From IMG/VR virus record IMGVR_UViG_3300037423_001065, positions 34,103 to 98,102 of that record: a stretch of DNA of 64,000 bases; one strand, written 5' to 3'. Shown here piece after piece: positions 8,232 through 63,643 of the stretch. Origin of the DNA: a virus. Positions within the stretch are counted from its first letter, which is position 1. Every line of letters starts with the position of its first letter. The position numbers were made by a program, and so were the translations under genes. A model generated the notes under the pieces. The model saw nothing but the letters and a program-made list of their open reading frames with translations, made no database searches and was not told where the DNA came from.

Positions 8232-9094
8232 GCCTGCGTCTGGGCCGCGTCGCGGCAGTTCACCCCGAAGATCACAGCGTCGACCTGGTCATGACGGACG
8301 ACGGCTCGCGCCTGGCCGGCGTGCAGGTCATGTCCGGCGCGGCGACGACGAACACCGGCAGCAACGACCTGGCGGACATTTCGATTCCATCGAGCGGCGA
8401 CCCGTGGGACCTCACGACGCAAACCGACCGCGACGCGATGGCCGTCGTCGGTTTCTTCGGCCGGCACCCGATCGTGCTGGGCTTCCTGTTCCCGCAGGTG
8501 TGCCAGATGACGTTCGATCGCAAGAACTTCTCCGTCCACCGTCACCCGTCCGACGTGTACGTGGCGATCGACAACGACGGCAACACCGAGGTCTACCACC
8601 CCAGCGGCACCTTCCTGCGCATCGGCGCGTCGCCGGCGCACGAGGACCTGACCGGCAAGGACGTGGACGGCGAGTGGAAGATCGCCAAGAACACCGACTC
8701 GGCACCCTATGTGCACCTGGTCACGGCCGCCGCCGGCGCCGTCAAGGCGGACCTCCAGATTGACCCTGCCGGCAACATCAGCCTGGACCACGTCGGCAAC
8801 CTCACGTCGCACACCGCCGGCAACGCCGCCGTGACCGTCGACGGGACCACGACCGTGACCTCCGGCGGCAATGCGCACGTCACGGCGCCCCAGCTCCTGG
8901 TCACGTGTCCGGATACCACGTTCACAGGGCACGTCGCCATCCAGGGCGGCCTGGCCGTCTCCGGCGGCGAAGGCGCGGCCGTCTCCGGCAACCTGGCGGC
9001 GACCGGCGGCAGCTTCACGCACAACAGCGTGAACGTCGGCTCGACGCACCATCACTCTGACCCGCAAGGCGGAAACACCGGCGGCCCGTCGTGA
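8228..9094 (+). CDS. Baseplate spike (gpV-like, 288 aa)
   Basis: N-terminal OB-like GRVAAVHP; beta-helix repeats; C-terminal THHHS...TGGP metal-binding tip. Confidence 0.88.
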   Translation: MSLRLGRVAAVHPEDHSVDLVMTDDGSRLAGVQVMSGAATTNTGSNDLADISIPSSGDPWDLTTQTDRDAMAVVGFFGRHPIVLGFLFPQVCQMTFDRKNFSVHRHPSDVYVAIDNDGNTEVYHPSGTFLRIGASPAHEDLTGKDVDGEWKIAKNTDSAPYVHLVTAAAGAVKADLQIDPAGNISLDHVGNLTSHTAGNAAVTVDGTTTVTSGGNAHVTAPQLLVTCPDTTFTGHVAIQGGLAVSGGEGAAVSGNLAATGGSFTHNSVNVGSTHHHSDPQGGNTGGPS

Positions 9095-9103
9095 CCTTAC
9101 GCT
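9088..9103 (+). promoter_or_regulatory. Late-promoter motif; leaderless start at 9110
   Basis: GTCGTGAC-ct-TACGCT-6 nt-ATG. Confidence 0.75.
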
Positions 9104-9109
9104 GAGGGC

Positions 9110-10432
9110 ATGCCCTTCTTTCCGCCGTCCGGCGGCATCGAGCTGCCCACGTCGCTGCCGTCGCTGCCCAGCCTATCCGGCCTCACGAGCTCGCTCGCGT
9201 CGGCCGTCGGCTCGCTGACGGGCGCGCTGCCTGGCGCGCTGTCGGGAGCGTCGGGCACCCAGGCCGCCAGCTCGGCGCCTGACAGCCAGAAGGCCGGCGA
9301 GCGGCCCATTTCCTTCCTGCTGGACGACCAGTCGCTGGGCGTCGCCGAGCCGACGCCGTTCCTGGACTTGGTCATCCGGCCGGAGGAGCTGACGCGCACC
9401 GACCCGTCGCGCATCAATGTGCAGCAAACCCTGGGCGGCGCCTGGGCGGACAGCTTCGGCGCGGGCCTGCCGCAAATCACCATCAGCGGGCATACCGGCT
9501 GGCGCCGGCGCCCGTCGAGCGACCAGGACGGCGTCGACCGGTTCCTCGAGCTCAAGGACCAGGTCTTCGACCAGTGGCACCAGCGCCGCGACGCCGCAAC
9601 GCTGCGCGGCACGGACCCGAACAACGTGCGCCTGGTGTTCTCCGATGCCCTGGACGACTTCACCGTCGTCGTGGCGCCCATGAGCTTCGTCCTGCGCCGC
9701 TCGAAGTCGCGCCCGCTTCTGTGCCAGTACCAAATCGTCATGGTCGTGATCGACGGCGACCCCGGCATCGAGCGCGAGGACGACGCGGTCATGGACTCCG
9801 CGGCCGACCCCGCCATGCTCCAGGGCCTGGGCCTCACGAGCCTGACGGCATCGGTCGCCTCGATCACGGCGCAAATCGGCAACGTGCAGAAGATGGTCAA
9901 CGGCTCACTGGTCGCTCCGGTGCAGGCGTTCATGGGCCAGACCGCGCAGCTTTACGGCCAGGTGCGCGCCGCGATCACGGCCGGGAGCCAGCTCGCCGGA
10001 TCGTTGATCAGCGTCGCCCAGATGACCGCCCAGGCTGGCGTCAACATCTTTCGCAGCATCGCCGCGGTGGCGAGCATCCCGCAGATTGCGAAGGCGCAGC
10101 TCATGTCCGTGGCGAGCGCCTACTCCAACATCTCGTGCGTGCTGAATAACGCGCTGCACCAGCAAATCTACTTCCAGGACTATTCCGCCGTGTACGGGGC
10201 GAGCAACTGCTCGAGCACGTCGGGCGGCCGCCCCATCAGCTCGCTCGCCGGCGTGAACCCGTTCTACAGCGCGGTTCCGACGCCGATCGCGTTGCCGATC
10301 AACCTCACCCAGGACGCGCAGACCGCGTTCCGCACCTTCGCCAGCGCCGACAACGTCCTGGCGCCCATCTCGCCCGCCGCCTTGACCTCGGGCCTGTCCT
10401 CCATCGCCAGCGGCTTCTCGATCAGCGTATGA
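9110..10432 (+). CDS. Baseplate/tube-initiator-like structural protein (440 aa)
   Basis: Within baseplate cluster; QTLGGAWADSFG..ITISGHTG motif; function inferred. Confidence 0.55.
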   Translation: MPFFPPSGGIELPTSLPSLPSLSGLTSSLASAVGSLTGALPGALSGASGTQAASSAPDSQKAGERPISFLLDDQSLGVAEPTPFLDLVIRPEELTRTDPSRINVQQTLGGAWADSFGAGLPQITISGHTGWRRRPSSDQDGVDRFLELKDQVFDQWHQRRDAATLRGTDPNNVRLVFSDALDDFTVVVAPMSFVLRRSKSRPLLCQYQIVMVVIDGDPGIEREDDAVMDSAADPAMLQGLGLTSLTASVASITAQIGNVQKMVNGSLVAPVQAFMGQTAQLYGQVRAAITAGSQLAGSLISVAQMTAQAGVNIFRSIAAVASIPQIAKAQLMSVASAYSNISCVLNNALHQQIYFQDYSAVYGASNCSSTSGGRPISSLAGVNPFYSAVPTPIALPINLTQDAQTAFRTFASADNVLAPISPAALTSGLSSIASGFSISV

Positions 10433-11046
10433 GCCAATTCGACCGCCCGATGATCGGCTTCCGGTTCGTGACCACGGACGTGGGGGACACGCTGCAGGAA
10501 ATCGCCGCGCGCGAGCTCGGCGACGCGTCGCGCTGGACCGAAATCGTCGCGTACAACAACCTGGTGCCGCCGTTCATCACGGACGACGCCGACGAGGCCG
10601 GACCTGGCGTCATCCTGACCGGCTCGCGGATTCGCTTGCCGGCGCCGTCGACGCAGGTGTCCGCGCGCCTTTCCGCCGACCAGGCGTTCGGCACCGACAT
10701 GCGCCTCGATCGCGGCGCGCTCGCCGTGACGGACGCCGGCGACTTCGACGTGGTGTCCGGCTCCGCCAATCTCGTACAGGCGCTGAGCAACCGAGTCGTC
10801 ACCGAGCGCGGCGAGCTCGTTTTCCATCCGCGCTACGGCTGCGAGACGCGTCGCCTGGTCGGCCTGGCGAACGGCCCCACCAAGCGGCTCCTGGCCGCGC
10901 AGTCCGCGAAGGCGGCCGTGCGCCAGGACCCGCGGGTGACGCGCGTCACCAAGGCGATCGGCAGCGTCAACGGCGATGTGATTGCCGTCGGCGTCGTGGC
11001 GGAGACCGTGCTCGGCTCCGGGGTTCAAGTCGTGGCGAAACCGTAA
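10429..11046 (+). CDS. LysM-like plus gp25/W-like baseplate wedge protein (205 aa)
   Basis: GDTLQEIAARELGDASRW (LysM-like); NLVQAL...GELVFHPRYG...QDPRV (gp25-like). Confidence 0.8.
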   Translation: MSQFDRPMIGFRFVTTDVGDTLQEIAARELGDASRWTEIVAYNNLVPPFITDDADEAGPGVILTGSRIRLPAPSTQVSARLSADQAFGTDMRLDRGALAVTDAGDFDVVSGSANLVQALSNRVVTERGELVFHPRYGCETRRLVGLANGPTKRLLAAQSAKAAVRQDPRVTRVTKAIGSVNGDVIAVGVVAETVLGSGVQVVAKP

Positions 11047-11055
11047 GGGCCCAGC

Positions 11056-12237: not shown

Positions 12238-12240
12238 GCC

Positions 12241-13344: not shown

Positions 13345-13345
13345 G

Positions 13346-13361
13346 GTCGTGACACCAGAAT
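13346..13361 (+). promoter_or_regulatory. Late-promoter motif before fibre genes
   Basis: GTCGTGAC-ac-CAGAAT, intergenic. Confidence 0.7.
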
Positions 13362-13385
13362 GCCCTGGCAGACAGGAGCACCCTG

Positions 13386-13880
13386 GTGAAATTCTTCGAC
13401 CGCTTCAAGAAGGGCCCCGAGGGCCATCTCGTGCTGAACGTGTTCCGGCACGGAAAGCTGATCGACCAGATGGACGAGCGCGATCGCATCATCGTCCCGC
13501 CGACCCTCATCGAGCGATTCAAGGGCAAGAACCTGATCGTGGACAGCTCCAAGCTGATTCACGCCAAGCTCCTCGGCGGCGACGTGGCGAACCGCAGCGT
13601 CTCCAAGTTCGGCGTGGGCACCAACGGCGCGGCGCCCGCCGGCGGCAACACTGCGCTGACGGCCGCCTACACCAAGGCCGTCGACGCCGTGAGCTACCCG
13701 GCCGTCAACCAGGTCGCGTTCGACTTCTCGCTCGCGACCGGCGAGGCCAACGGCAAGGCCATCCTCGAGTTCGGCCTGTTCACCACGGGTGACGTGCTGT
13801 ACGCGCGCAAGATTCGCGCGACCCCGCTGAACAAGGAAGCCGACATTTCGTTCGCCGGCACCTGGACCATCAGCTTCTAG
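13386..13880 (+). CDS. Tail fibre attachment/baseplate-associated protein (164 aa)
   Basis: AGGAG RBS plus GTG; KNLIV...FGVGT...EANGKAILEFGL pattern. Confidence 0.7.
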   Translation: MKFFDRFKKGPEGHLVLNVFRHGKLIDQMDERDRIIVPPTLIERFKGKNLIVDSSKLIHAKLLGGDVANRSVSKFGVGTNGAAPAGGNTALTAAYTKAVDAVSYPAVNQVAFDFSLATGEANGKAILEFGLFTTGDVLYARKIRATPLNKEADISFAGTWTISF

Positions 13881-13891
13881 GAACCCCACTC

Positions 13892-16123: not shown

Positions 16124-16148
16124 AAACCCGGCCGCGGCCGGGTTTTTT
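16124..16148 (+). terminator. Intrinsic terminator ending the tail operon
   Basis: AAACCCGGC-cgcg-GCCGGGTTTTTT. Confidence 0.85.
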
Positions 16149-16151
16149 CAT

Positions 16152-16167
16152 GTCGTGACCGAACAAT
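16152..16167 (+). promoter_or_regulatory. Late-promoter motif for lysis cassette
   Basis: GTCGTGAC-cg-AACAAT immediately after terminator. Confidence 0.75.
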
Positions 16168-16196
16168 GCTGACACCGTCACGCGTCGGAGTCCTAC

Positions 16197-16517
16197 ATGA
16201 AGCACCTCGAATCCTGGTTGAAGCGCGTCAAGGTCTTTTCCGACCTCTCGGCGTGGTTCCTCATCGCGCCGGCGTTCGCCGCGCTGTGGTTCATGGACCC
16301 GCCCACCGCGAAGGCCCTGCTCCAGTGGAGCCTGTTCGGCATCGTCATGGCCGGCGTGGCCGTCATGGTGAGCCGCCTGGTGTTCCCCGACCTGCACCTG
16401 AACGACTTCATCAAGCGCGCCTATAACGGTGGCATCGCCTCGGCGATCGTCTCGGCCGCGGTGATCCTGTTCGTCGGCCTGGTGTTCTTCGGCCTGGTGT
16501 ACTGGGCGAAACCGTGA
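16197..16517 (+). CDS. Putative holin (106 aa, about 3 TM segments)
   Basis: Hydrophobic segments; first gene of lysis cassette. Confidence 0.7.
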   Translation: MKHLESWLKRVKVFSDLSAWFLIAPAFAALWFMDPPTAKALLQWSLFGIVMAGVAVMVSRLVFPDLHLNDFIKRAYNGGIASAIVSAAVILFVGLVFFGLVYWAKP

Positions 16518-17884: not shown

Positions 17885-18144
17885 TGCGTGCGCTGTCGAT
17901 CGCCTGCCTGGCGGCCTTCCTGGCCGCCTGCAACACCCTGCCGCGCGAGGTGAAAGTCCCCGTGACGGTCTACTGCAAGGTCGAGAAGCCGGCCGAGCCC
18001 GCCTGGGCGACGAAATCGCTCAAGCCGGACGCCGACATATTCGACCAGGTCAAGGCCCTGCTGGCCGAGCGCAAGCAGCGCATCGGGTACGAGCGCCTGC
18101 TCGAGGCCGCGGTCGACGGGTGCCAGCCGCCGGCCGGCCGCTAG
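17881..18144 (+). CDS. Outer-membrane spanin lipoprotein (Rz1-like, 87 aa)
   Basis: Lipobox LAAC; Pro-rich; follows i-spanin. Confidence 0.85.
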   Translation: MMRALSIACLAAFLAACNTLPREVKVPVTVYCKVEKPAEPAWATKSLKPDADIFDQVKALLAERKQRIGYERLLEAAVDGCQPPAGR

Positions 18145-18290
18145 GCGAAAATCCGCTGCGCCTTGTCGGCGAGCTCTTGCTGGCGCAGCATGATGCGCGG
18201 CACGTCCGGGTGTAGCGGGTCGATTTCCGACATGGCCCAGCGGTAGAACGCCTGGGCGACCATGACGTGGATGAGGCTGAGAATCTTCAC
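18141..18290 (-). CDS. 49-aa hypothetical protein absent from the ORF track (MKILSLIHV...AQRIFA)
   Basis: GTG 18290 to TAG 18141; fills the gap exactly; preceded by late-promoter motif at leaderless spacing. Confidence 0.7.
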   Translation of the reverse strand: MKILSLIHVMVAQAFYRWAMSEIDPLHPDVPRIMLRQQELADKAQRIFA

Positions 18291-18296: not shown

Positions 18297-18312
18297 ACCT
18301 TAGCGTCACGAG
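18297..18312 (-). promoter_or_regulatory. Late-promoter motif variant; leaderless start at 18290
   Basis: CTCGTGAC-gc-TAAGGT-6 nt-GTG on minus strand. Confidence 0.65.
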
Positions 18313-18944: not shown

Positions 18945-19591
18945 AGCGTCAGAACCTCGGCCAGCGCCGGGAACTGCTCGAGCAGGATGCGCTTGGCATC
19001 GAGCGCGATCGCGCGGTGCTCCTTCTGCGTTCCCTGTTCGGTGCGCAGCTCGACGTAGTGAATCCACGATCGGATCGTGCCGGCCATGTAGAGCACGCTC
19101 TCCGTCGTGCCCTCGGGCAGCACGGCGCGCGCGACCTCCTTCGCGATGCCCTTCGCGAGCGCCGCCTGGTAGACCTCCGCGGCGCGCTTGGCGTGTAGCG
19201 CCTGCATCGACGCCCACCAGCCCTGCAACTCCATGTCGTCGGTCTCGTTGCTGGCCTGGCGGTTCTTGGCGTCCTGCAGCCGGGCCTCGCGCAGCACGGG
19301 CGGCGCCACGACGGCCGCGTAGCGCTGGCTGAACTCCTGGAAGCTGAAACTGCGATGCCGCAGGATTTGCCGGGCAATGTCGCGCGTCGTCGTGATTTCG
19401 AGCGTCATGCTCGCCATCTCGAAGGGGGACCAATGCGCGTTGCCGGCCAGGTAGCGAAGCAGGCGCGTCGACGTGGCGGTGTTGGCCTGGTTCGCCGGGT
19501 TGCTCACGCGCGCGCAGTACGCGATGAGGTCGCCGGCCTCCTGGCAATCAGGGATGACCGGCTTGCTGATGGCGATGAGGCGGGCCGTCAT
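18941..19591 (-). CDS. thyX: FAD-dependent thymidylate synthase (216 aa)
   Basis: YCARVS, HWSPFE and RHRSFSFQEFSQRY signature. Confidence 0.96.
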   Translation of the reverse strand: MTARLIAISKPVIPDCQEAGDLIAYCARVSNPANQANTATSTRLLRYLAGNAHWSPFEMASMTLEITTTRDIARQILRHRSFSFQEFSQRYAAVVAPPVLREARLQDAKNRQASNETDDMELQGWWASMQALHAKRAAEVYQAALAKGIAKEVARAVLPEGTTESVLYMAGTIRSWIHYVELRTEQGTQKEHRAIALDAKRILLEQFPALAEVLTL

Positions 19592-33879: not shown

Positions 33880-34382
33880 GCGCGCTTCAACCTGCGCGAC
33901 CAGCGCAGCTTGGGTCCTGTCGGGTGCCGGTCGACGCGCGGCCGCGACGGCTTGTCCCAGGAACCGCCAGCGCTCGCCCCATCCAACGCGAAGCCGGCCG
34001 CGCGCAGGCTGACGCCCGACTCGCTGGCGAGCGTGTACGTGATCAAACGCTCATACCCGCGTGCGCGCGCCTCGCGGGCCGCGGCGGCCAGGAGCATGCT
34101 TGCGACGTTGATCGTGCCGCTCGTCGCCAGGCGCGTGACCTCGAGCGTACGGCCGTCGTCCAGGTGGCGCGAGACCGGCCGGCCGACGATCGCGACGCCC
34201 TCCTCGCTCGAGCGGATGGCATTGAGCGCGTAGGCCATGAGGCTGAACTTGTGGCCGGCGACGCGGCCGTGGTGGCGGTGGAACGCCTCGACCAGGCGCT
34301 GCGCATCGGCGAGCGTGCAGGGGCAAACACACAGCCGCTCGTCGCCGAACAGCCCGCCCTTGAGCTCGCGATGGCGCGTCAC
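33876..34382 (-). CDS. Mom-like GNAT-fold protein (XF1762-type, 168 aa)
   Basis: HRHH, GVAIVGRPVSR, LEVTRL, ITYTLASESGVSLRAAG, KLRW. Confidence 0.75.
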   Translation of the reverse strand: MTRHRELKGGLFGDERLCVCPCTLADAQRLVEAFHRHHGRVAGHKFSLMAYALNAIRSSEEGVAIVGRPVSRHLDDGRTLEVTRLATSGTINVASMLLAAAAREARARGYERLITYTLASESGVSLRAAGFALDGASAGGSWDKPSRPRVDRHPTGPKLRWSRRLKRA

Positions 34383-34573
34383 GCCAGCTTCTCGAGCTGC
34401 CGGCGCTTCGGGTTCGCCTTCGTCACCTTGAAGTTCTCCGGCACCAGCCAGGTACCGTTATCGAGCTGTTCCGCGCCGCGGATACGGCCGGCGCCGCACA
34501 GCACCTGCAGCCGGCGCTTGCTGACCTGGCGCGCCTCCGCTGCCGCCTTGAGGGTGATCTTGTTCGTTGCCAT
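34379..34573 (-). CDS. Small HTH DNA-binding protein (64 aa)
   Basis: AAAEARQVSKRRLQVLC..GRIRGA..WLVP. Confidence 0.75.
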   Translation of the reverse strand: MATNKITLKAAAEARQVSKRRLQVLCGAGRIRGAEQLDNGTWLVPENFKVTKANPKRRQLEKLA

Positions 34574-44809: not shown

Positions 44810-45343
44810 ATGCAGGTTGAGTACCATTCGATCGCCCTCACGCCGGGCATCCTCTACTTCGATTGCCAGCACCTCAAGGCCAGGCTGAGCACGGGCTCGT
44901 GCGCCTCAATGTGGCGCGCCAGCAACGGCCCGGGATGCGGCGACCAGGCCCGGGAGAGCTGCAAGCGCTGCCCCCTGGGCGCCCTGCACGCCGGCGAGGC
45001 TGACGCCTCCACCTCGAGCCTGGCCGGCTCCAAGGTCTGCTCGCGCTGCCATCGGCCGGCGCCGCGCCTGATCGGCGGCATGCACTGCGTCTCGTGCAAG
45101 AACCGCGAGTACGAGTTCATGAAGGGCAAGAACGCGAAGGGCACGACGCCGGTCAAGCTCGCATGCCTGGCGCGCCGGCGCATCCGCTTCATGGCGGGCG
45201 GCGAGCTGCGCACGTCGACGGCGCCCTTCACCCTGGACGACGCCGAGCTGATCATCTCGGCGCTGCGCGACAACAAGTCGGTCGTCCGCTTCGGCCTGGC
45301 GCCATGCGTCACGCCGGCCCTGCGTCAGATGCGGCTGTTCTGA
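44810..45343 (+). CDS. Cys-rich protein ending QMRLF (177 aa)
   Basis: Multiple CxxC pairs; TAGAAT -10 upstream. Confidence 0.7.
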   Translation: MQVEYHSIALTPGILYFDCQHLKARLSTGSCASMWRASNGPGCGDQARESCKRCPLGALHAGEADASTSSLAGSKVCSRCHRPAPRLIGGMHCVSCKNREYEFMKGKNAKGTTPVKLACLARRRIRFMAGGELRTSTAPFTLDDAELIISALRDNKSVVRFGLAPCVTPALRQMRLF

Positions 45344-45344: not shown

Positions 45345-45635
45345 GTGGCGCGCACCCTGACCGGCCTTGTCTCCCTCACGGACCACGTCTGCGCTGCCTG
45401 CTTCGGGCGGATCGTCAAGGGCGAGCGACCGCTCGACTGCACCGACGACCATGCGCACCGCTGGACCTGCACCAACTGCGGCGCCGAGACCGTGCACCGC
45501 GAGGTCTCGAGCATCTGCTCGTGCGGCATCCGCACCAAGACCGGCCGCGACGCCGGCGTGCGCTGTGAGCGAAACCCGACACCGACACCCGAGTTCCCCA
45601 GCCTGATCGTTGCCGCGCAGAGCGTGCCGGCCTAG
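45345..45635 (+). CDS. Zn-ribbon protein (96 aa)
   Basis: CAAC-x22-CTNC plus CSC. Confidence 0.65.
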   Translation: MARTLTGLVSLTDHVCAACFGRIVKGERPLDCTDDHAHRWTCTNCGAETVHREVSSICSCGIRTKTGRDAGVRCERNPTPTPEFPSLIVAAQSVPA

Positions 45636-53174: not shown

Positions 53175-53489
53175 ATGCCCAACACGAGTACGAAATTCAA
53201 ACCGCCGGCGCCCGACGATGAGCTCTGGTACTTCCCCAGCGCCGAGCTCCCGCGCGGGCCCCGCGGCACCCTGGCGATGGGCAAGCTGCGCGGCCTGCCG
53301 GCGATCGTCACCAACGTGCACACCGCGCGCGTGGTGGACATTGAAGTCACCGACGCGAAGGGCGACGCGCACCGCTTCAACGGCGTCACGCTGCTGCAAG
53401 AGGGCGACCCGCATCCGCTGCCGCTCATGGGCCACTGCCAGTGGCACCAGAGCCCGTGGCCGGAGCAATCTCCCGCCGACGGCGAGTGA
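53175..53489 (+). CDS. Hypothetical protein (104 aa)
   Basis: GAGGAGG RBS; PAIVTNV. Confidence 0.7.
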   Translation: MPNTSTKFKPPAPDDELWYFPSAELPRGPRGTLAMGKLRGLPAIVTNVHTARVVDIEVTDAKGDAHRFNGVTLLQEGDPHPLPLMGHCQWHQSPWPEQSPADGE

Positions 53490-53503
53490 CGTGACGGTAG
53501 CCT
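53488..53503 (+). promoter_or_regulatory. Late-promoter motif; leaderless start at 53510
   Basis: GACGTGAC-gg-TAGCCT-6 nt-ATG. Confidence 0.7.
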
Positions 53504-53509: not shown

Positions 53510-54148
53510 ATGGCTCACCCCAAAGCGACATTCACCGAGGAGCGCAAGACTGAGGTCCTGGGCCTGATCAAGGCCCACCTGGCTGAGCACGGCAGCAAGA
53601 ACTACAAGCCGCTGATGGAGGCGTGCGCCGACATTCCCCAGGCGACCATCTGGACCTGGATTCGCAAGGTCAAGAACGACCCGCCCAGCCAGGTCGAGAT
53701 TCGCCAGGCGCACGACGCCCTCATGGAGCGCGCCACGGCCGCGGCCGCCGGCGAGCTGCCGACGCCTCCGCCGGCGCTCGTCGCCAAGACCGGCGTACAG
53801 CGCGCCATCCGCAAGCTCGACTTCGCCCAGGAAATCGAAAAGCTGTACGCCGACGCCGAGATGCTGCGCGAGTTTTCCGTCGCCGTGAAAACTGGCGAGG
53901 ACGGCGAGCCGGTCGAGAAAATCAAGAACGCGCACACCTTCGAGAAGTCGATCAAGTCGCGCGCGTCGCTGATCGAGACCAGCCTCAAGGTGCTGGACGA
54001 GCTCTGGAACGCCCGCACCATCCAGCAGTTCTACGGCATCATCATCGAGGAGATTGGCCGGGCCGACCTCGATACCCAGAAGCGCATCCTCGAGCGCCTG
54101 CGCGTGGTGAACGAGCGGCACGGCATGTCGCTGTCCATGCGCCTATGA
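53510..54148 (+). CDS. Terminase small subunit (212 aa)
   Basis: N-terminal HTH (IPQATIWTW); coiled coil; overlaps large-subunit start. Confidence 0.75.
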   Translation: MAHPKATFTEERKTEVLGLIKAHLAEHGSKNYKPLMEACADIPQATIWTWIRKVKNDPPSQVEIRQAHDALMERATAAAAGELPTPPPALVAKTGVQRAIRKLDFAQEIEKLYADAEMLREFSVAVKTGEDGEPVEKIKNAHTFEKSIKSRASLIETSLKVLDELWNARTIQQFYGIIIEEIGRADLDTQKRILERLRVVNERHGMSLSMRL

Positions 54149-56268
54149 GCGGAAGATACAAGCCGCACGGCGGCGGCCGCGGCAACCCGCCGCCGCGCAA
54201 GCCCGACCTGCTCGCGTTCATGACCTCCGGCCTCGAGGAGACCATGGCCGCGATCGAGGAGGCGACCGGCGTCAACCGCGAAACCCTGGTGATCGCCGAC
54301 GGCGTGACGTTCCGCCAGTGGTGCGAGGACCTGGGCTCGAAGGGCCTCAAGGTGGACGGCAAGCCGTTCCGCCTGGACGACCGGCCGGCCATGGCGTGGG
54401 TCTATGACCAGGTGCCCGGCACGATCGACCAGGCGTACCGCTACATGCTCGTGATCATGAAGTGCGCCCAGGTCGGGTTCACGGTCATGGAGATGCTGGC
54501 GACGATCTACCTGGGCCTCAAGTTCGGCCGCAAGCTCGGACAGTGCACGATCGGCATGTTCCTGCCCGACATGAACCTGGCCGGCGTCAAGTCGACCGAG
54601 CGCTTCATGCCCGTGGTGCGCAGCGTGCCCGAGGTGCACGCGCTCATGACGCAGGACGCGCCCGACGGCAGCGGCCGCAAGCAGGGCGAGGGCAACGTCA
54701 ACCGCCGGCGCATCGACTCCGCGCTGTTCATCTTCTCGTGGACCAGCGGCCGGGCGACGACCGAGTCCATCCCGATGGACGTGCTGTCGTTCGATGAGGT
54801 CCAGGAGATGACCCTGGACCAGATTGAAAAGACGATCGAGCGCCTGTCGGCGTCGCCGCTGCGCACGCTGCAAATGGGCTCGACGGCCAACTGGCCGGAC
54901 GCCGACATTGACCACTGGTACAAGCGCGGCACGCGGTTTCGCTTCCACACCCGCTGCAGGACGTGCGGCAGCATGAAGCCGCTCGATGACTATTTCCCCG
55001 AGTGCATCCGCCTGGACAAGGAGCGCGACACCTACCGCTACGTGTGCCCGAACGGCCACTGGATAGACGACAGCCAGGACGGCGAGTGGATCGCCGAGCA
55101 CCCGGAGCGCGACCCGGGCCCGCAGCTCGACGTGCCGCTCAAGGACCGGCGCCTGCGCATCCGCTCGATTCACTTCCCCCAGTTCCTGTCGCCCACCATC
55201 AGCCCCGAGGAAATTCTGTCGGCCTACAACACGGCGACCGACATGAAAAACTTCTTCAACCGCAAGCTGGGCAAGCCGTACCTGGACCCGAGCCAGGTCC
55301 CGGTGACGCTCGAGCACCTGGCGGCGTGCGTGGAGGCCGGCAAGGCCGCCGGCGTGAAGTGGAAAACCCGCGGCAAGGGTTGCTACATGGGCATCGACCA
55401 GATGGGCAACTTCAACGTCGTCGTGATCAAGGAGCGCCTGGCCGACGGCCGCCAGGCCGTGGTGCACGTCGAGATGATCTACAGCGCCGACCCGTTCGCG
55501 CGCTGCGACGAGCTCATGGGCGCCTTCGGCGTCGCCGTGTGCGTGGTGGAAATCAACCCGAACTACAACGACGCGAAGCGCTTCGCGAACCGCTGGCGCG
55601 GCCGCGTGTTCATCTGCGACAGCTTCGGCCGCATGGCGGAGGGCATGATCGCCTGGGGCGATGCGCCGAAGCTGGACGTGAGCGAGCGGCGCACCGACGA
55701 GGCCGAGCGCGACCGCTACACGCTCAAGATGGACCAGTACAAGTGCATGCAGGTGTCCATGGCGCGGTTCACCGCGAAGGAGCCGCTGTGCGTGTTCCCG
55801 GACCCGCAGGGCCTGGTGCAGGAGGTCAAGGAGAAGGGCATCGCCCAGACCGCGGCCGTGCTGCCGATCGCGTTCACCCACTTTACGAAAACCGCCCTGG
55901 TCGCCGAGAAGGACGAGGAGACGAACCAGTTCAAGCGGTCGGTCAAGAAGATCGGCATTGACCCGCACTTTTCGTACGCCAACATGCTGTGCGACGTGGC
56001 CTGGGCGCGATCGCACGGCACCGCGACGTTCCTCATCCCCGACACGGAAGGACCTTCCATGGAACCCGCCGATCAACTCCGGCGCGCCGGCATGCCCGAG
56101 ACCGTCGCCCAGATGGTGGAGGCGCAGTCCCAGGGCCTGGCCGACACCTGCGGCAACTGCGCGGCCGCGTACAACGACGATGGCGAGTGGACCGGGCGGT
56201 GCGCCGAGCGACACTTCGTCATCCGTAAGGAGCTCGCCGCCTGCCCTCTTTTCCTGACCAAGTCGTGA
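54145..56268 (+). CDS. Terminase large subunit, GpA-like (707 aa)
   Basis: IMKCAQVGFT deviant Walker A; LSFDE Walker B; Zn motifs; FFNRKLGKPY; MGID nuclease; DPHF. Confidence 0.93.
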   Translation: MSGRYKPHGGGRGNPPPRKPDLLAFMTSGLEETMAAIEEATGVNRETLVIADGVTFRQWCEDLGSKGLKVDGKPFRLDDRPAMAWVYDQVPGTIDQAYRYMLVIMKCAQVGFTVMEMLATIYLGLKFGRKLGQCTIGMFLPDMNLAGVKSTERFMPVVRSVPEVHALMTQDAPDGSGRKQGEGNVNRRRIDSALFIFSWTSGRATTESIPMDVLSFDEVQEMTLDQIEKTIERLSASPLRTLQMGSTANWPDADIDHWYKRGTRFRFHTRCRTCGSMKPLDDYFPECIRLDKERDTYRYVCPNGHWIDDSQDGEWIAEHPERDPGPQLDVPLKDRRLRIRSIHFPQFLSPTISPEEILSAYNTATDMKNFFNRKLGKPYLDPSQVPVTLEHLAACVEAGKAAGVKWKTRGKGCYMGIDQMGNFNVVVIKERLADGRQAVVHVEMIYSADPFARCDELMGAFGVAVCVVEINPNYNDAKRFANRWRGRVFICDSFGRMAEGMIAWGDAPKLDVSERRTDEAERDRYTLKMDQYKCMQVSMARFTAKEPLCVFPDPQGLVQEVKEKGIAQTAAVLPIAFTHFTKTALVAEKDEETNQFKRSVKKIGIDPHFSYANMLCDVAWARSHGTATFLIPDTEGPSMEPADQLRRAGMPETVAQMVEAQSQGLADTCGNCAAAYNDDGEWTGRCAERHFVIRKELAACPLFLTKS

Positions 56269-57432: not shown

Positions 57433-57695
57433 TCAACCGCGTCCTGCTCGGCGCCATGGTGGCCCTCTGGTCACTGGCGTGCGTCGTGCTGGGCGCGGCC
57501 GCCTTCCCGCAGGCGCACGCGGCACCGGTCGAGTCCCCCGGCTCGGCCGAGCTGACAGTCGCCTTCCTGTGCGTGGACGGCAAGGCGGTGGGGATGCACC
57601 TCGCCGCCCCGACGGCAGGCTCATGGTCGATTCGCTTCGACCATGAGCTGTGCCGGCCGGCTCCCGCGCCGCGGCGTGTCACGCCGCTGTCGTGA
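57429..57695 (+). CDS. Secreted/membrane protein (88 aa)
   Basis: Signal-like N-terminus ending AHA; GTGA overlap. Confidence 0.6.
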   Translation: MINRVLLGAMVALWSLACVVLGAAAFPQAHAAPVESPGSAELTVAFLCVDGKAVGMHLAAPTAGSWSIRFDHELCRPAPAPRRVTPLS

Positions 57696-57704
57696 CAACA
57701 GGAT
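57689..57704 (+). promoter_or_regulatory. Late-promoter motif
   Basis: GTCGTGAC-aa-CAGGAT. Confidence 0.7.
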
Positions 57705-57753
57705 GCAGGTTCTCGTTGCATCGAGAACCATCCATCCTCCAAGGAGCCTCATC

Positions 57754-58074
57754 GTGAAATCACACCGCAGCATCTGGGCCGCCATCGCCGGCGCCATCAT
57801 CTTCGCCCTGTCCTGGCTGGACCCGGTCTACGATCGCGTCGCCGCCGCCTGGGAACGCGCCGTCGTCCGCACGCGCGACCTCTGGGAGGCCGCCTGCCTC
57901 AAGGTCAGCCAGGCGATCGACAAGGCCCTGAGCCTGTTCGCGCCCGGCGGCGTGTTCTCCGTGCACCTGCAGCGCCTGGCCGACGCCGTCAAGACGACCT
58001 ACCGCACCTGGCGCGACCGCAAGGCCGACCACTACCGCGCGCCGGGTTCCTGGGTGAGCTGCGCGAGCACCTGA
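57754..58074 (+). CDS. Membrane-anchored hypothetical protein (106 aa)
   Basis: AAGGAG RBS plus GTG; N-terminal hydrophobic helix. Confidence 0.65.
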   Translation: MKSHRSIWAAIAGAIIFALSWLDPVYDRVAAAWERAVVRTRDLWEAACLKVSQAIDKALSLFAPGGVFSVHLQRLADAVKTTYRTWRDRKADHYRAPGSWVSCAST

Positions 58075-58092
58075 CACCCGCCCCGCGGAAGC

Positions 58093-58121
58093 AAAAAGGC
58101 CGGCGAAACCCGGCCTTTTTT
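58093..58121. terminator. Bidirectional intrinsic terminator
   Basis: AAAAAGGCCGG-loop-CCGGCCTTTTTT. Confidence 0.85.
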
Positions 58122-58125
58122 CATG

Positions 58126-58141
58126 GTCGTGACCGCACTAT
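58126..58141 (+). promoter_or_regulatory. Late-promoter motif
   Basis: GTCGTGAC-cg-CACTAT right after terminator. Confidence 0.75.
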
Positions 58142-58177
58142 GGGGGCCTTCGATCGAACATCAATCCGGAGCGATTC

Positions 58178-58399
58178 ATGACCACTCCCACTCCCGCGAA
58201 GCAGGCCCGCCTCAATAAGACGAACAAGGTGAAGATCGGCGACGCGATGGCCGACCTGATCGCCGCGCACAACGACCTCAAGGCAAAGTTCATCGCCCTG
58301 GCGGCCAAGCTGGACGCCGACGCCGGCGTCACGGACACGAACTACTCCACGACCTGCGCGCCGACCATCGGCACCGTCAAGGACCTCGAGTCGCGCTGA
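58178..58399 (+). CDS. Small coiled-coil, possibly virion-associated protein (73 aa)
   Basis: GGAG RBS; LIAAHNDLKAKFIALAAKLD. Confidence 0.65.
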   Translation: MTTPTPAKQARLNKTNKVKIGDAMADLIAAHNDLKAKFIALAAKLDADAGVTDTNYSTTCAPTIGTVKDLESR

Positions 58400-59337: not shown

Positions 59338-59528
59338 GTGACCTTCTCCCAGATTTCATCCAGCCGCGCGACCTGGTTCGGCGTGAGGCTGAACCCCTTG
59401 GCGAGCCGGTCCTCGATGCTGTCGATGAACGACCGCTCCCAGTCGGACAGCTTCGACTCGCGCCGCTTGCAGTCCTCGATCATGGTCGGCCACTCGTCGG
59501 GCGTGCTGGGTTCGCCTTGCATGCTCAT
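59334..59528 (-). CDS. Hypothetical protein (64 aa)
   Basis: LSDWERSFIDSI..LTPNQ..LDEIW. Confidence 0.7.
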   Translation of the reverse strand: MSMQGEPSTPDEWPTMIEDCKRRESKLSDWERSFIDSIEDRLAKGFSLTPNQVARLDEIWEKVT

Positions 59529-59965: not shown

Positions 59966-59974
59966 GGTTCCTCC

Positions 59975-61180: not shown

Positions 61181-61181
61181 A

Positions 61182-61535
61182 TCAGCGCTCCTGGTCCCGG
61201 CGGCCGGCGCGGATGCCCATGGCCTTCGTGCTGTCGATTTCCTGCATGCGCTCGGCGCTCGCGCGGCCGAAGGCCCAGGCGCACATGGACTCGGACAGGC
61301 GCGAGTCGCCCAGGTGGCCGCTGGTCATCACGGGCGCGACTTCCGCCTCGGTGAGCAGGTCGTTCTGCACGATCACGTCGGCGCGCACGATCACGTGCAC
61401 GTCGGCGATCTTGTGCTTGATGCGGAGCTCCTGGAGTTCCTTGAAAAACGCCTGGAGGCGGTCGTCAATGACGCCGCGCGGCACCGGCTCGGAGAGCTCG
61501 CGGTACCGGCTGGGGCTGTGGTCGAGGATCGGCAT
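61182..61535 (-). CDS. Hypothetical protein (117 aa)
   Basis: In operon, ATG 61535. Confidence 0.65.
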   Translation of the reverse strand: MPILDHSPSRYRELSEPVPRGVIDDRLQAFFKELQELRIKHKIADVHVIVRADVIVQNDLLTEAEVAPVMTSGHLGDSRLSESMCAWAFGRASAERMQEIDSTKAMGIRAGRRDQER

Positions 61536-61537
61536 GC

Positions 61538-61783
61538 TCAGTCCGCCGACTTGCGCGAGGGCCAGGCCGCCATGGCGTCGCGCGTGGCGATCGCGTCCCT
61601 GATCTTCGGGTGCTCGAAGCCGAGGGTCTTGACGTTGAGGTCGATCCAGCGCTGCACGACTTCGTCGGCGCTGGCGTCCTGCGCGCGGAGCACGAAAATC
61701 GGCTCGTCGTCGCCGCACTTCGGCAGGCAGGTGTCGTTGGTCTTGGTGTGGGCCTGGGGTTGGGCCTGGTTCGAGGTGGGCAA
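61538..61783 (-). CDS. Hypothetical protein (81 aa)
   Basis: AGGAGG RBS plus TTG; DEPIFVLRAQD motif. Confidence 0.7.
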   Translation of the reverse strand: MPTSNQAQPQAHTKTNDTCLPKCGDDEPIFVLRAQDASADEVVQRWIDLNVKTLGFEHPKIRDAIATRDAMAAWPSRKSAD

Positions 61784-61812
61784 AGTCGCCTCCTGGGGTT
61801 GATGGTTCCTCA

Positions 61813-61842
61813 ATTATGGTGCACTTGATCAAAAAAGCGCAA
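61813..61842 (-). promoter_or_regulatory. Sigma70-like promoter with TTGATCAA box in spacer
   Basis: TTGCGC-18-CATAAT; TTGATCAA at 61825-61832. Confidence 0.75.
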
Positions 61843-61863
61843 GACCGGATTCCAGCCGGCGTT

Positions 61864-61879
61864 GTCGTGACACTACCCT
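61864..61879 (+). promoter_or_regulatory. Late-promoter motif; leaderless start at 61886
   Basis: GTCGTGAC-ac-TACCCT-6 nt-ATG; no SD. Confidence 0.75.
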
Positions 61880-61885
61880 GCGGCC

Positions 61886-63643
61886 ATGAAGGACTCCGCC
61901 CTCCAGGTTGCCCACGACCCGCGCGCGCCGGCCGACGAGCGCCAGGACGCGATGACGCAGCTCCAGAAGGGCGCCATGCCCCAGGTTTCCGCGGAGCTCC
62001 TGAACGCCGAGCGCCTGGTGCCGCTCCTCGAGTACATCGCCGACGGGTACGAGGACCAGGCGATGACAAAGGCGTTGCGCAAGAACAACGTCATCCAGCT
62101 CCCGTCCGCGGCCGCGCGCGAGCGCAAGCCGGGCATGCAGTCGGTCTACCTGGACGACGTGCAAATCGGCGTGATGGGCGACTACTACGAGCGCCAGGGC
62201 GTGTTCTCGTTCGAGGCGATGCGCCAGATGGTCGAGTCGACGCCGCTGCTGAACGCCGTGATCATGACGCGCATCCGCCAGGTGCAGCGCTTTTGCCGGC
62301 CGCAGACCGACGGCAAGGGCCCCGGTTTCAGCGTCCGCATGCGCGATCGCAAGGCGAAACTGGGCGACGACCAGGTCAAGTCCCTGCAGCTCCTCGAGAA
62401 GTTCTTCTCGCACGGCGGGATGGAGTTCAAGCCGCGCATGCGTCAGCGCTTGAAGCGCGACGACATGAGCACGTTCATGGCGAAGCTGGTCCGCGACTCG
62501 CTCACCATGGACGCGGCGCCGATCGAGACCGAGTTCAAGCGCGATCGCAGCCTGGGCATCGACGGCATCTACGCCGTCGACGGCGCGACCATCCGCCTGT
62601 GCACCGAGCAGGGCTACCGTGGCGACGACGAGATTTTCGCCATCCAGCTCGTGCAAGGGAACATCCGCAGCGCGTACACGTTCGATGACCTCATTTACGT
62701 GCCGCGCAATCCGCGCACCGACGTGCTGTCGGGCGGCTACGGCATGGGCGAGACCGAGCTGCTGATCCGCGTGGTGACGGGCTTCCTGAACGCGTTCACG
62801 TACAACATCAAGTTCTTCGACTCCAACGCGATGCCGCGCGGGGTGCTGAACCTGTTCGGCGCCTACAGCGACGACGACATTAAGGCGTTCAAGCGCTACT
62901 GGAACGGCATGGTCAAGGGCATCAACAATGCCCATGCGCTGCCCGTCATGGTCTCGAAGGACCAGGAGTCCGCGGCGAAGTTCGAGAGTTTCGGCGAGCC
63001 GGCGTCCGAGCTGATGTTCGGCAAGTGGATGACGTTCCTGGCGTCGATCATCTGCGCGATTTACGGCATGGCGCCGGACGAAATCAACTTCGAGTCGTTC
63101 ACCAACGGCACCTCGAGCCTGTCCGGGTCGGACACCGAGGAGAAGATCGCCAGCTCGAAGGACAAGGGCCTGCGCCCGCTGCTGTCGTACTTCCAGAACC
63201 TGTTCACCGACTACATCGTCGCCGACTTCAACGAGGACGCCGAGTTCGTGTGGACCGGCCTCGATGAGGAGGACGAGAAAACCGTCTGGGAGCGCAAGCA
63301 GGCGACCATGACCGTCAACGAGGTGCGCGCCGAGGACGGCCGCGAGCCGATCAAGGAAACCTGGGGCGACGCCCCGCTCAACCCGATCCTGGTCGCCGCC
63401 TGGCAGCAAGAGGCCATGCCGCAGGAGCAGGACTTCGGCCAGCCCGGCCAGTCCGACCCGAGCGCGATGGGCGGCAACGACTTCGGCGGCGGCGACGACG
63501 AGGAGGACTTCGGCCAGCCTGGCGGTCAGCCCGGCGCCGACGACGACCAGGACCCGGACGGCGGCAGCGTCGGGCCCACCGACGACGAGAAGGCCAACCT
63601 CCAGAAGTCGTTCGGCCTGCCGGTGCTGCGCATCGAGCCATGA
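61886..63643 (+). CDS. Portal protein (585 aa)
   Basis: GYGMGETE, FFDSNAMPRGVL, ICAIYGMAPDEI, GLRPLL, MTVNEVRA portal motifs; acidic DFGQPG tail. Confidence 0.93.
   Translation: MKDSALQVAHDPRAPADERQDAMTQLQKGAMPQVSAELLNAERLVPLLEYIADGYEDQAMTKALRKNNVIQLPSAAARERKPGMQSVYLDDVQIGVMGDYYERQGVFSFEAMRQMVESTPLLNAVIMTRIRQVQRFCRPQTDGKGPGFSVRMRDRKAKLGDDQVKSLQLLEKFFSHGGMEFKPRMRQRLKRDDMSTFMAKLVRDSLTMDAAPIETEFKRDRSLGIDGIYAVDGATIRLCTEQGYRGDDEIFAIQLVQGNIRSAYTFDDLIYVPRNPRTDVLSGGYGMGETELLIRVVTGFLNAFTYNIKFFDSNAMPRGVLNLFGAYSDDDIKAFKRYWNGMVKGINNAHALPVMVSKDQESAAKFESFGEPASELMFGKWMTFLASIICAIYGMAPDEINFESFTNGTSSLSGSDTEEKIASSKDKGLRPLLSYFQNLFTDYIVADFNEDAEFVWTGLDEEDEKTVWERKQATMTVNEVRAEDGREPIKETWGDAPLNPILVAAWQQEAMPQEQDFGQPGQSDPSAMGGNDFGGGDDEEDFGQPGGQPGADDDQDPDGGSVGPTDDEKANLQKSFGLPVLRIEP

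Follow-up and report, generated by a model that had tools for sequence, protein, structure and literature searches.

A promoter-like motif placed six nucleotides before start codons predicts leaderless late mRNAs in a soil phage

Leaderless and late-gene expression in described systems

Leaderless late transcripts are known from phages of Thermus, and Lalka27a and YS40 are the closest known case to the phage described here. In Lalka27a, transcripts are mostly leaderless, with 5' ends 6 nt past the -10 element, and the late promoters carry a class-specific -10 and no -35 box, from which the authors infer a phage-encoded specificity factor (preprint, bioRxiv 10.64898/2026.04.20.719267). The Thermus phage phiYS40 is cited in the same preprint as having leaderless middle and late transcripts (bioRxiv 10.64898/2026.04.20.719267). 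The window analysed here, the final 64 kb of a soil phage genome of 98,102 bp, encodes a portal protein 36% identical to that of Lalka27a, whose own portal gene is preceded by TAGGGT, 6 nt and ATG. The two phages share a -10 element without a -35 box and a start codon 6 nt past the hexamer. They differ in the element itself: the Lalka27a -10 is TAGGGT with a C at -25, whereas here a GTCGTGAC box abuts a degenerate nAnnAT. With these hexamers, and with nothing conserved upstream of -22, the present motif falls outside the Lalka27a late promoter class. The hosts differ as well, since Thermus commonly uses leaderless mRNAs while the hosts here are Proteobacteria (Pseudomonas, Bordetella, Aeromonas), in which such mRNAs are rare. 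Finally, the leaderless state of the Thermus phage transcripts rests on 5'-end data, whereas here it is predicted from sequence.

The Lpa-dependent late promoters of P1, of which we extracted the six annotated examples, are an analogue and not a match. Like the elements described here, they lack a -35 box and carry in its place a conserved box near the -10 hexamer, with GTGAC in both boxes, and, as proposed for the class in this phage, they drive morphogenesis, packaging and lysis genes. However, the P1 box is a 9-bp AAGT(G/T)ACTT lying 4 nt before TANNNT, while the box here is 8 bp (GTCGTGAC) and lies 2 nt before the hexamer, with GTGAC shifted by 4 bp; the leaders of P1 late genes measure 19-86 nt, whereas part of the class here sits at a spacing of 6-7 nt. 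Because box sequence and spacing differ, we do not place the motif among the P1 late promoters or in the Lpa regulon. A tblastn search for Lpa (gp10) homologues in 13 genomes gave nothing better than E=0.45, though a very remote homologue could escape such a search, and hhalign gave a probability of 0.1% for a match between a Cys-rich core protein and Lpa. A further resemblance is that this phage encodes a P1-like DarB-type giant protein.

Three further systems bear comparison. The classical leaderless mRNAs of E. coli elements are those of lambda cI, transcribed from PRM, and Tn1721 tetR. The mRNAs predicted here would share with these a 5'-terminal AUG, no Shine-Dalgarno site and a strict AUG preference; cI and tetR are isolated regulatory genes, however, whereas here the arrangement involves about 40% of a promoter class and essential structural and packaging genes. 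T4 late promoters (TATAAATA, used with gp55/gp33/gp45) consist of a -10 element only, define a late class and are read by a phage-directed polymerase, as is proposed here, but their sequence differs from the present motif and T4 late mRNAs have leaders. Sigma70_r2 and r4_2 searches matched no sigma-like domain in this genome, though a gp55-like protein could escape such models. The start-associated sequences of Cluster K mycobacteriophages lie at a fixed short distance from the start and have a Shine-Dalgarno-like core; the motif described here lies 6-86 nt from the start, lacks such a core and is not a member of that group.

The motif and its two arrangements in the genome

The genome carries about 19 good copies of a 16-bp motif, GTCGTGAC-N3-A-N2-A-T. 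In the 19 copies, A and T are invariant at -11 and -7 of the nAnnAT hexamer and A is found at -8 in 15; T at -12 is not conserved, TG at -15/-14 is absent, and we found no conserved -35 region, nor anything else conserved upstream of -22. The hexamer agrees with sigma-70-type -10 elements in its A-11, its T-7 and a pyrimidine/purine step about 7 nt downstream. No sigma-70 consensus promoter was found between 52900 and 62000 of the window, and searches of the genome with Sigma70_r2 and r4_2 returned no match, gp55-like proteins being too divergent for such models. Terminator-like T runs directly precede the copies at 16152 and 58126, and a 53-bp divergent intergenic region is filled by two back-to-back copies.

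We infer that the motif acts as a promoter specific to the phage, lacking a -35 box and used mostly for late genes. Its 3' half would amount to a minimal -10 element, with A at -11, T at -7 and usually A at -8. Its 5' half, from -22 to -15, would form a box, probably recognized by a factor of the phage itself or by a modified form of the host polymerase. Transcription would start 7 (sometimes 8) nt past the hexamer, a distance assumed from sigma-70-type behavior since no sigma-70 region 2/4 domain was detected.

At four sites in the window, the following features bring this position onto a start codon:

9088..9103, + strand: promoter-like motif GTCGTGAC-CT-TACGCT
9110..10432, + strand: 440-aa virion protein of tail tube initiator / baseplate type, ATG 6 nt past the hexamer
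18297..18312, - strand: deviant motif CTCGTGAC-GC-TAAGGT, conserved in the closest relative (G006)
18141..18290, - strand: 49-aa micro-ORF, GTG start 6 nt past the hexamer
53488..53503, + strand: motif GACGTGAC-GG-TAGCCT, directly after the stop (53487-53489) of an upstream 104-aa gene
53510..54148, + strand: 212-aa protein, encoded just before the large terminase, ATG 6 nt past the hexamer
about 54148-56268: large terminase, adjoining the 212-aa gene
61864..61879, + strand: motif GTCGTGAC-AC-TACCCT, intergenic, before the portal gene
61886..63643, + strand: portal protein, 585 aa (Phage_portal), ATG 6 nt past the hexamer

The sequence-only reading from which this work began had noted TANNNT copies exactly 6 nt before 9110, 18290, 53510 and 61886, and this geometry is confirmed. 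GTGAC-NN-TANNNT lies at 9091-9103 (+), 18309-18297 (-), 53491-53503 (+) and 61867-61879 (+), followed after exactly 6 nt by ATG 9110, GTG 18290 (-), ATG 53510 and ATG 61886, respectively, a distance into which a Shine-Dalgarno site cannot fit. The composite pattern of motif, 6 nt and start has 4 matches against 0.26 expected, a number reached in 0 of 100 shuffles. The upstream box deviates in two copies (GACGTGAC at 53488 and CTCGTGAC at 18312). No earlier start is possible in the frame of any of these start codons, since at a spacing of 6 nt the TGA inside the box lies in frame 18 nt upstream; at 9092-9094 this TGA is also the stop of an upstream 288-aa gene.

The four genes differ in how widely the arrangement is shared. 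Orthologues of the 440-aa protein keep a spacing of 6 nt in 10 of 12 relatives, those without it being found among E. coli, Yersinia and Aeromonas phages, and the motif upstream of the portal gene is conserved in 23 IMG/VR loci. For the 212-aa protein, orthologues have a spacing of 6 nt in two relatives (G006 and G001) and a 30-nt leader in PHB04. The label "small terminase" earlier given to this protein is positional only: it has no Pfam or PHROG match, nor does it resemble the N-terminal portion of the 866-876-aa terminases found in Dolphis-type relatives. Of the four candidates for leaderless expression, the micro-ORF is the weakest. In its favor, it has the 6-nt spacing and a motif conserved in G006, where the protein is 92% identical and 8 of 12 nucleotide changes fall at codon position 3; against it stand the GTG start, the deviant box and the lack of a homologue in the other 11 relatives compared.

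Further copies in the window lie farther from their start codons:

3826..3853, + strand: degenerate copy GACGGGAC-AA-CATAAT, 9 nt from ATG 3851, before a 962-aa gene
13346..13388, + strand: leader-bearing copy for contrast, 24 nt with AGGAG, then GTG 13386
16152..16199, + strand: leader-bearing copy after a terminator-like T run, 29-nt spacing with GGAG, ATG 16197
57689..57756, + strand: leader-bearing copy for contrast, 49-nt spacing with AAGGAG, GTG start
58126..58180, + strand: leader-bearing copy after a terminator-like T run, 36-nt spacing with GGAG, ATG 58178

ATG 3851 opens a tape-measure/transglycosylase-like gene, which possibly has a leader of only about 2-3 nt. Genome-wide, the distance from hexamer to first start falls into two groups, one at 6-7 nt (a few at 9-10 nt), which comprises 6-9 copies, and one at 11-59 nt, mostly with GGAG-type sites. 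For the strict motif, 5 of 15 genome copies have a start at a spacing of 6-7 nt (binomial P=1.8e-5). At the 6-9 copies of the first group, including the four window sites, the initiating nucleotide would be the first base of the start codon itself, A (or G), such that the mRNA would begin with AUG, without a 5' UTR or Shine-Dalgarno site, and would be translated by the leaderless route.

It had also been proposed that copies whose hexamer begins with a base other than T mostly have leaders. This is true of the window, where the leaders of such copies measure 11-59 nt and mostly contain GGAG-type sites, but not of the whole genome, where (in genome coordinates) GATGAT at 2166, CACCAT at 19217 and CATACT at 33970(-) have spacings of 6, 7 and 6 nt, while TACGAT at 31379, though T-first, is followed by a 24-nt leader that contains a Shine-Dalgarno site. 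In 10 genomes, T-first copies divide into 10 leaderless-type and 10 not, versus 38 and 56 for the others (Fisher p=0.46). The link between a first-position T and the leaderless type is an accident of the window.

Conservation of the arrangement and alternative explanations

Thirteen genomes of the family, which has cultured members including Bordetella PHB04, Pseudomonas Dolphis and Aeromonas ST4, contain 147 strict motif copies, nearly all on the late-gene strand; a reversed-pattern control gave 0 matches. A start at a spacing of 6-7 nt opens an ORF of at least 45 aa at 63 of the 147 copies, with per-genome binomial P values of 1e-5 to 5e-8 in most genomes. Conservation of the spacing in homologues had been suggested as a check, and it is borne out: 6-7 nt is kept in most relatives at the genes for the portal, the protease, a 284-aa adaptor-like protein, the 440-aa tail/baseplate protein, 384-aa and 1525-aa proteins and the terminase, even as the sequence of the 6-nt spacer varies freely among orthologues. 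Behind about half of the copies, the start lies 11-86 nt away with an ordinary Shine-Dalgarno site between.

Leaderless mRNAs are known, mainly from work in E. coli, to need a 5'-terminal AUG, and the requirement is strong in Gram-negative bacteria. All 63 starts at a spacing of 6-7 nt are ATG, compared to 35 ATG, 9 GTG and 3 TTG among Shine-Dalgarno-led starts behind other copies (p=1.5e-5), and this exclusive use of ATG fits that requirement. The 81 leader-bearing copies independently mark the likely transcription start, as A peaks at hexamer+7 (33/81, against a background of 20%) and a pyrimidine occupies hexamer+6 in 59/81. The base before the ATG is C at 48 of 63 leaderless-type starts and at 35 of 75 starts with leaders (p=5e-4). 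As a point against leaderless translation, the first 40 nt of leaderless-type genes show no significant reduction in structure relative to leader-bearing genes. Taken with the conservation among relatives, the positional data strongly support the earlier proposal that +1 coincides with the start codon and leaves no space for a Shine-Dalgarno site; the leaderless state itself is still a prediction. Overall, we consider it likely that a phage-specific promoter places the start codon at +1 and thereby gives rise to leaderless late mRNAs.

Alternatively, the element could be a promoter or regulatory site whose position next to the start codon is incidental, with the genes at a spacing of 6-7 nt translated mainly from read-through transcripts by termination-reinitiation coupling or Shine-Dalgarno-independent initiation. 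The dense, co-oriented packing of the late genes would suit such a scheme, as would the upstream stops that lie within the motif or beside it (9092-9094 and 53487-53489) and the G-rich spacers GAGGGC and CGAGGG, which look like misplaced Shine-Dalgarno sites. Yet coupling is impossible at the portal gene and the divergent 262/284-aa pair, which have no adjacent upstream cistron, and the protease start lies 95 nt past the nearest upstream gene. Moreover, coupling does not predict the exact 6-7-nt spacing, the exclusive ATG or the C at -1, and GAGG-like spacers are not conserved among orthologues. We therefore regard read-through as an unlikely main route of translation. Several of these genes, lying in co-oriented clusters and, for ATG 9110 and ATG 53510, 15-20 nt past an upstream stop, probably occur on longer read-through transcripts as well.

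Somewhat less probable still is that the element acts in RNA, either as a site of endonuclease processing or as a translation signal associated with starts. Its strand specificity, gene orientation and frequent position immediately before start codons would agree with this. In about half of the copies, however, the start is 11-86 nt away and an ordinary Shine-Dalgarno site intervenes, so the element does not serve as the ribosome-binding site in its own right; nor is the motif complementary to the anti-Shine-Dalgarno sequence. Further, its conserved positions match the A (-11) and T (-7) of a -10 element, copies follow terminators, and the pyrimidine/A pair keeps a constant distance to the hexamer also at copies that have no start codon there.

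That the true starts lie downstream and are Shine-Dalgarno-led is very improbable, despite GenBank annotations of relatives that place starts 20-54 codons downstream: by 30 codons for the portal of Aeromonas ST4, 22 for that of Yersinia fHe-Yen8-01, and 54 and 20 for Dolphis gp15 and gp25. Conservation of the portal, 284-aa, protease and tail/baseplate proteins begins at Met1 and includes residues upstream of the annotated starts; portal homologues align from residue 1, and the homologous Met is also where the leader-bearing orthologues of E. coli and Yersinia phages begin. In the 440-aa gene no alternative in-frame start precedes codon 87, and codon-position GC at the four sites is coding-like right after the start (GC3 of 0.85-0.95 from codon 2). 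These four annotations thus seem 20-54 codons too short, and gene callers that seek Shine-Dalgarno sites appear to misplace such starts. Lastly, with four copies in the window a chance coincidence of motif and start codon might be imagined, but the shuffles (0/100 reached 4 matches), the binomial P values (down to 5e-8 per genome) and conservation at orthologous genes in 13 genomes leave it a negligible prospect.

Predicted leaderless late genes across the family and their hosts

Natural leaderless mRNAs are scarce in Pseudomonas, Bordetella and Aeromonas, where their translation is thought to be weak, and leaderless translation is considered inefficient in gamma-proteobacteria generally. To our knowledge, the fusion of a motif to the start codon is rare in phages of Proteobacteria. 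If 5' ends map as predicted, the genes described here would constitute a large conserved leaderless set of essential late genes in Pseudomonas, Bordetella and Aeromonas phages, with one such gene also in E. coli and Yersinia phages. Since several family members are cultured, the prediction is directly testable. The family also offers a natural experiment, in which orthologous genes stand behind the same promoter with or without a leader, and the promoter-plus-start module, 22 nt long, could find use as a compact part for expression. The proteins of the leaderless-type set are low-copy or catalytic, while strong Shine-Dalgarno sites are found at the capsid, sheath and tube genes, a distribution compatible with the earlier idea that leaderless translation may set low stoichiometry; the other earlier idea was that such translation may persist late in infection.

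More tentatively, this family of ~90-kb Proteobacteria myophages may express essential morphogenesis genes (portal, terminase, prohead protease, adaptor, tail/baseplate initiator and giant head-cargo proteins) from truly leaderless mRNAs, with the promoter-start junction tuned to the host; we hold this broader proposal to be possible but doubtful. In one E. coli and one Yersinia phage, most junctions are replaced by leaders with Shine-Dalgarno sites. Under the host-tuned proposal, Pseudomonas, Bordetella and Aeromonas phages and environmental relatives would have kept the junction, while the E. coli/Yersinia clade would have converted most junctions to Shine-Dalgarno-led leaders, leaving at its protease gene what may be a relic, a two-codon ATG-TTT-TGA at +1. 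If the proposal is true, leaderless initiation would have to be efficient enough late in infection in these hosts, and the phage may favor it by remodelling ribosomes or initiation factors.

A promoter-like motif and its leaderless-type junctions

The DNA analyzed here spans positions 34103-98102 of one virus record (98,102 bp, 68% GC) and belongs to a tailed phage, as judged by protein matches that include a portal, a large terminase, a prohead protease and sheath, tube and baseplate genes; Rfam and tRNA scans of the window returned no matches. The relatives are ~90-kb myophages, namely Bordetella phage PHB04, Pseudomonas phages Dolphis, Jeremy and Touem01, Aeromonas ST4, Enterobacter phiT5282EW, Escherichia ECML-606-1, Yersinia fHe-Yen8-01 and many IMG/VR contigs, with Thermus phages as distant relatives.

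Genes assigned by protein matches
Window 61886-63643: portal
Window ~54148-56268: large terminase
2151 aa: P1 DarB-like methylase-helicase

The sequence-only reading had described four window sites at which a -10-like hexamer is followed by 6 nt and then a start codon, and all four are exactly as described. Each hexamer forms the 3' half of a 16-bp promoter-like motif whose 5' half is an 8-bp box.

The four window sites
Site 1, 9088-9103: GTCGTGAC-CT-TACGCT, 6 nt, ATG at 9110
Site 2, 18312-18297, minus strand: CTCGTGAC-GC-TAAGGT, 6 nt, GTG at 18290
Site 3, 53488-53503: GACGTGAC-GG-TAGCCT, 6 nt, ATG at 53510
Site 4, 61864-61879: GTCGTGAC-AC-TACCCT, 6 nt, ATG at 61886

The pattern GTGAC-NN-TANNNT matches four times against 0.26 expected, a count reached in no shuffle. 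Across the genome there are ~19 good copies with the consensus G-T-C-G-T-G-A-C-N3-A-N2-A-T, whose 3' part has an invariant A, an invariant T and, often, a second A just ahead of the T; these bases correspond to A-11, T-7 and A-8 of a -10 hexamer, the first base of which is free. Because no position upstream of the box is conserved, the motif lacks a -35 element, and no sigma-70 consensus promoters were found upstream of the terminase-linked and portal genes. Copies are intergenic or lie at gene ends, in the orientation of the downstream gene, and those at 16152 and 58126 directly follow terminator-like T runs. The regions around these two (window 16140-16170 and 58112-58145) share an upstream context of terminator stem, T run, CATG(G)T and box, which suggests a reused terminator-promoter cassette.

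The spacing, or distance from the end of the hexamer to the first start codon of a real ORF, falls into two groups.

Spacing in motif copies across the genome
6 nt: genome 2166 (384 aa), 14092 (1525 aa), 33970 on the minus strand (262 aa) and the four window sites
7 nt: 19217 (protease) and 24938 (uncertain 82-aa ORF)
9-10 nt: 33980 (284 aa), window 3826 (962 aa) and 13501
11-59 nt: all remaining copies, mostly with GGAG-type sites

These groups place the four sites within a set of at least nine, with spacings of 6-7 nt that we term leaderless-type junctions. The proposal that a hexamer beginning with T marks leaderless genes was rejected, as this rule fails outside the window. Just beyond the window's edge (genome 33952-34004, window -150 to -98), a 53-bp divergent intergenic region is nearly filled by two back-to-back copies, one leading to the ATG of the 262-aa gene on the minus strand at spacing 6 and the other to the ATG of the 284-aa gene on the plus strand at spacing 9; the closest relative also has spacing 6 at its 262-aa gene but uses GTG as the start codon there.

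Conservation of the junctions and their start codons

Box (in one case GTCGTGAT) and hexamer lie upstream of the portal gene in 23/23 IMG/VR loci encoding portals of 52-91% protein identity. In 19 of these the portal ATG falls 6-7 nt past the hexamer behind a spacer of differing sequence, and the other four have leaders of ~25-35 nt in which a Shine-Dalgarno site can mostly be recognised. Separately, ~20-35 nt farther upstream from the portal's box there is an A-rich element (TCAAAAAAGCGCAAG-like; window 61826-61843) that many relatives retain even though the proteins diverge by 40-50%; candidate roles for it are a divergent promoter, a factor site and a packaging-related function.

We next consider 13 complete or near-complete genomes, in which a stricter pattern (GTCGTGAY-N3-A-N3-T) yields 147 strict copies, nearly all on the late-gene strand, against none for a reversed-pattern control. 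A start codon opening an ORF of at least 45 aa stands at spacing 6 or 7 in 63 of the 147; the first ten genomes analyzed contribute 37 junctions with spacing 6 and 11 with spacing 7. Per-genome binomial P values range from 1e-5 to 5e-8 except in the E. coli and Yersinia phages. The genes at these junctions are orthologous between phages, and comprise the portal, protease, 284-aa adaptor-like, tail/baseplate initiator, 384-aa, giant head protein and terminase genes. Among orthologues the spacing drifts between 6 and 7 (6-9 for the 284-aa gene; 7 for the protease here versus 6 in the closest relative), which is the flexibility expected of start-site selection and not of a fixed RNA signal.

Several observations bear on whether these start codons are genuine. 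At spacing 6, a TGA within the box lies in frame 18 nt upstream of the ATG, so that no earlier start is possible in the frame of this ATG. From codon 2 on, GC3 stands at 0.85-0.95, and it is lower upstream in the same frame where no upstream gene enters the motif; in the 440-aa gene, no other in-frame start precedes codon 87. Portal homologues align from residue 1, and the portal N-terminus is kept across the 13 genomes as Met, Thr/Lys-Asp in most, and then a common AP-x-DE-x-x-DA stretch, with the same Met used behind a Shine-Dalgarno leader in the E. coli and Yersinia phages. The N-termini of the 284-aa protein, the protease and the tail/baseplate protein are likewise conserved, and the 440-aa protein shares its N-terminus with the closest relative's 391-aa orthologue before an insertion. 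This insertion in the tail/baseplate initiator (window 9110-9260), absent from the 391-aa orthologue, is a ~49-aa N-terminal low-complexity stretch of Leu-Pro-Ser-rich repeats.

Some GenBank annotations start downstream of the junction ATG, by 30 codons in OR261032.1 (ST4 portal), 22 in OR620963.1 (Yersinia portal), and 54 and 20 in gp15 and gp25 of MT711888.1 (Dolphis). N-terminal conservation indicates that the upstream ATG would be the real start in these genes, and the offsets are probably systematic gene-caller errors at starts without a Shine-Dalgarno site.

The motif copies also show three independent signatures. Gram-negative leaderless mRNAs require a 5' AUG, and ATG is the codon at every one of the 63 starts with spacing 6-7, versus 35 ATG, 9 GTG and 3 TTG for Shine-Dalgarno-led starts behind other copies (p=1.5e-5). 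The base before the ATG is C in 48/63 of the former versus 35/75 leadered starts (p=5e-4). Bacterial RNA polymerase classically prefers a pyrimidine at -1 and A at +1. In 81 leadered copies, A peaks exactly at hexamer+7 (33/81 versus a 20% background), pyrimidines prevail at hexamer+6 (59/81) and hexamer+1 is biased toward G. This pyrimidine/A pattern appears to mark hexamer+7 as the transcription start site where no start codon is present, and in spacing-6 copies the same position is the A of the ATG.

Differences among hosts and among genes

The leaderless-type share of strict copies ranges from 5/15 to 7/11 in this phage, its environmental relatives, Dolphis and PHB04, and is 3/8 in Aeromonas ST4, 1/9 in the E. 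coli phage and 1/7 in the Yersinia phage. GC content does not determine junction type, since a 42%-GC relative keeps 3/7. In the E. coli and Yersinia phages the sole leaderless-type junction belongs to the 284-aa orthologue, and the portal, tail/baseplate, giant-protein and protease promoters are kept with leaders bearing Shine-Dalgarno-like sites. Both phages look like one clade, so the contrast represents one evolutionary event and not a statistical trend. At their protease promoters (OL631484.1, E. coli phage ECML-606-1, ~34476-34491, minus strand; OR620963.1, Yersinia, 3726-3770), ATG-TTT-TGA stands at spacing 6, followed by AAGGG and the real protease ATG at spacing 28. This sequence looks like a two-codon relic of the relatives' leaderless start, and today it might serve as a very short upstream ORF that has no leader.

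Among the four window cases, the portal (61886) is the strongest, being intergenic with no upstream cistron, a family-wide junction and a conserved N-terminus. A strong case can be made for the tail/baseplate initiator (9110), as 10/12 relatives have spacing 6, and a good one for the 212-aa gene (53510) that precedes the large terminase, where spacing 6 recurs in both the closest relative (G006) and another (G001). The name 'small terminase' given to this gene earlier is positional only. The 212-aa ORF (53510-54148) overlaps the longest large-terminase reading (53623-56268) by 525 nt. Dolphis-type relatives instead encode a single long terminase of 866-876 aa, at spacing 6, whose first ~210 residues contain a P-loop-like GxxGGKT and are dissimilar to the 212-aa protein, so terminase N-termini come in two distinct forms within the family. 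We considered the 212-aa protein as the N-terminus of fused-type terminases and rejected this, having found no homology. The 49-aa ORF (18290) is a plausible but weak case: it looks coding, with 92% identity in the closest relative and 8/12 changes at third codon positions, but it starts with GTG behind a deviant box, its hexamer has no A at -8, and it has no homologue beyond that relative.

Possible promoter readers and known systems

Even among phages whose hosts differ greatly the box does not vary, making it likely that the factor reading it is phage-encoded. Pfam Sigma70_r2 and r4_2 searches of the genome gave no match, and no large polymerase-like protein core to the family was found. 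In the early region, the only family-core unknowns are two adjacent proteins.

Family-core proteins of the early region
Window 44810-45343, plus strand: 177-aa protein with 8 invariant Cys (CxxC pairs)
Window 45345-45635, plus strand: 96-aa protein

Pfam and PHROG gave no match for either. For the 177-aa protein, a confident AlphaFold model (pLDDT 90) gave nothing significant in Foldseek against the PDB and a best Z of 2.7 in VIA-align, and the ESM Atlas gave unnamed viral clusters only. Among GenBank phages both proteins are confined to this family. Their distribution does not discriminate on a reader role, because Morganella phage Mecenats66 has both and lacks the strict motif; the Yersinia record labels the 96-aa homologue particle-associated. 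That this pair reads the GTCGTGAC box is pure conjecture.

The late promoters of phage P1 resemble this arrangement in having a box near -22 beside a -10 element, but the P1 box is AAGT(G/T)ACTT, 4 nt from the hexamer, and P1 leaders are 19-86 nt long; the different box and spacing, together with no Lpa homologue detected in the 13 genomes, speak against a P1 Lpa-type system. Of the systems studied by experiment, Thermus phage Lalka27a comes closest; at its portal gene, TAGGGT is followed by 6 nt and the ATG. Late promoters of that phage lack a -35 box but carry TAGGGT as a distinctive -10 element, 5'-end mapping places the transcript ends 6 nt past this element, and leaderless transcripts predominate, as they do in phiYS40 (bioRxiv 10.64898/2026.04.20.719267). 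Literature searches covering the motif, the phages PHB04 and fHe-Yen8-01, and leaderless transcripts in Pseudomonas phages turned up no account of the arrangement, and no paper on the motif or on leaderless late genes in the PHB04/Dolphis group.

The four-site observation is thus confirmed and extended, and its best-supported reading, which we consider quite probable from the sequence comparisons, is that these late genes would be expressed from leaderless mRNAs. Reduced structure or lower GC at the 5' ends of the leaderless-type genes was not significant (p ~0.09). The leaderless-type set consists of low-copy or catalytic proteins, and the major capsid, sheath and tube genes lie inside operons with strong Shine-Dalgarno sites. 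This gene set is compatible with the earlier suggestion that leaderless translation may set low stoichiometry of packaging components, and is equally explained by the placement of promoters before first cistrons.
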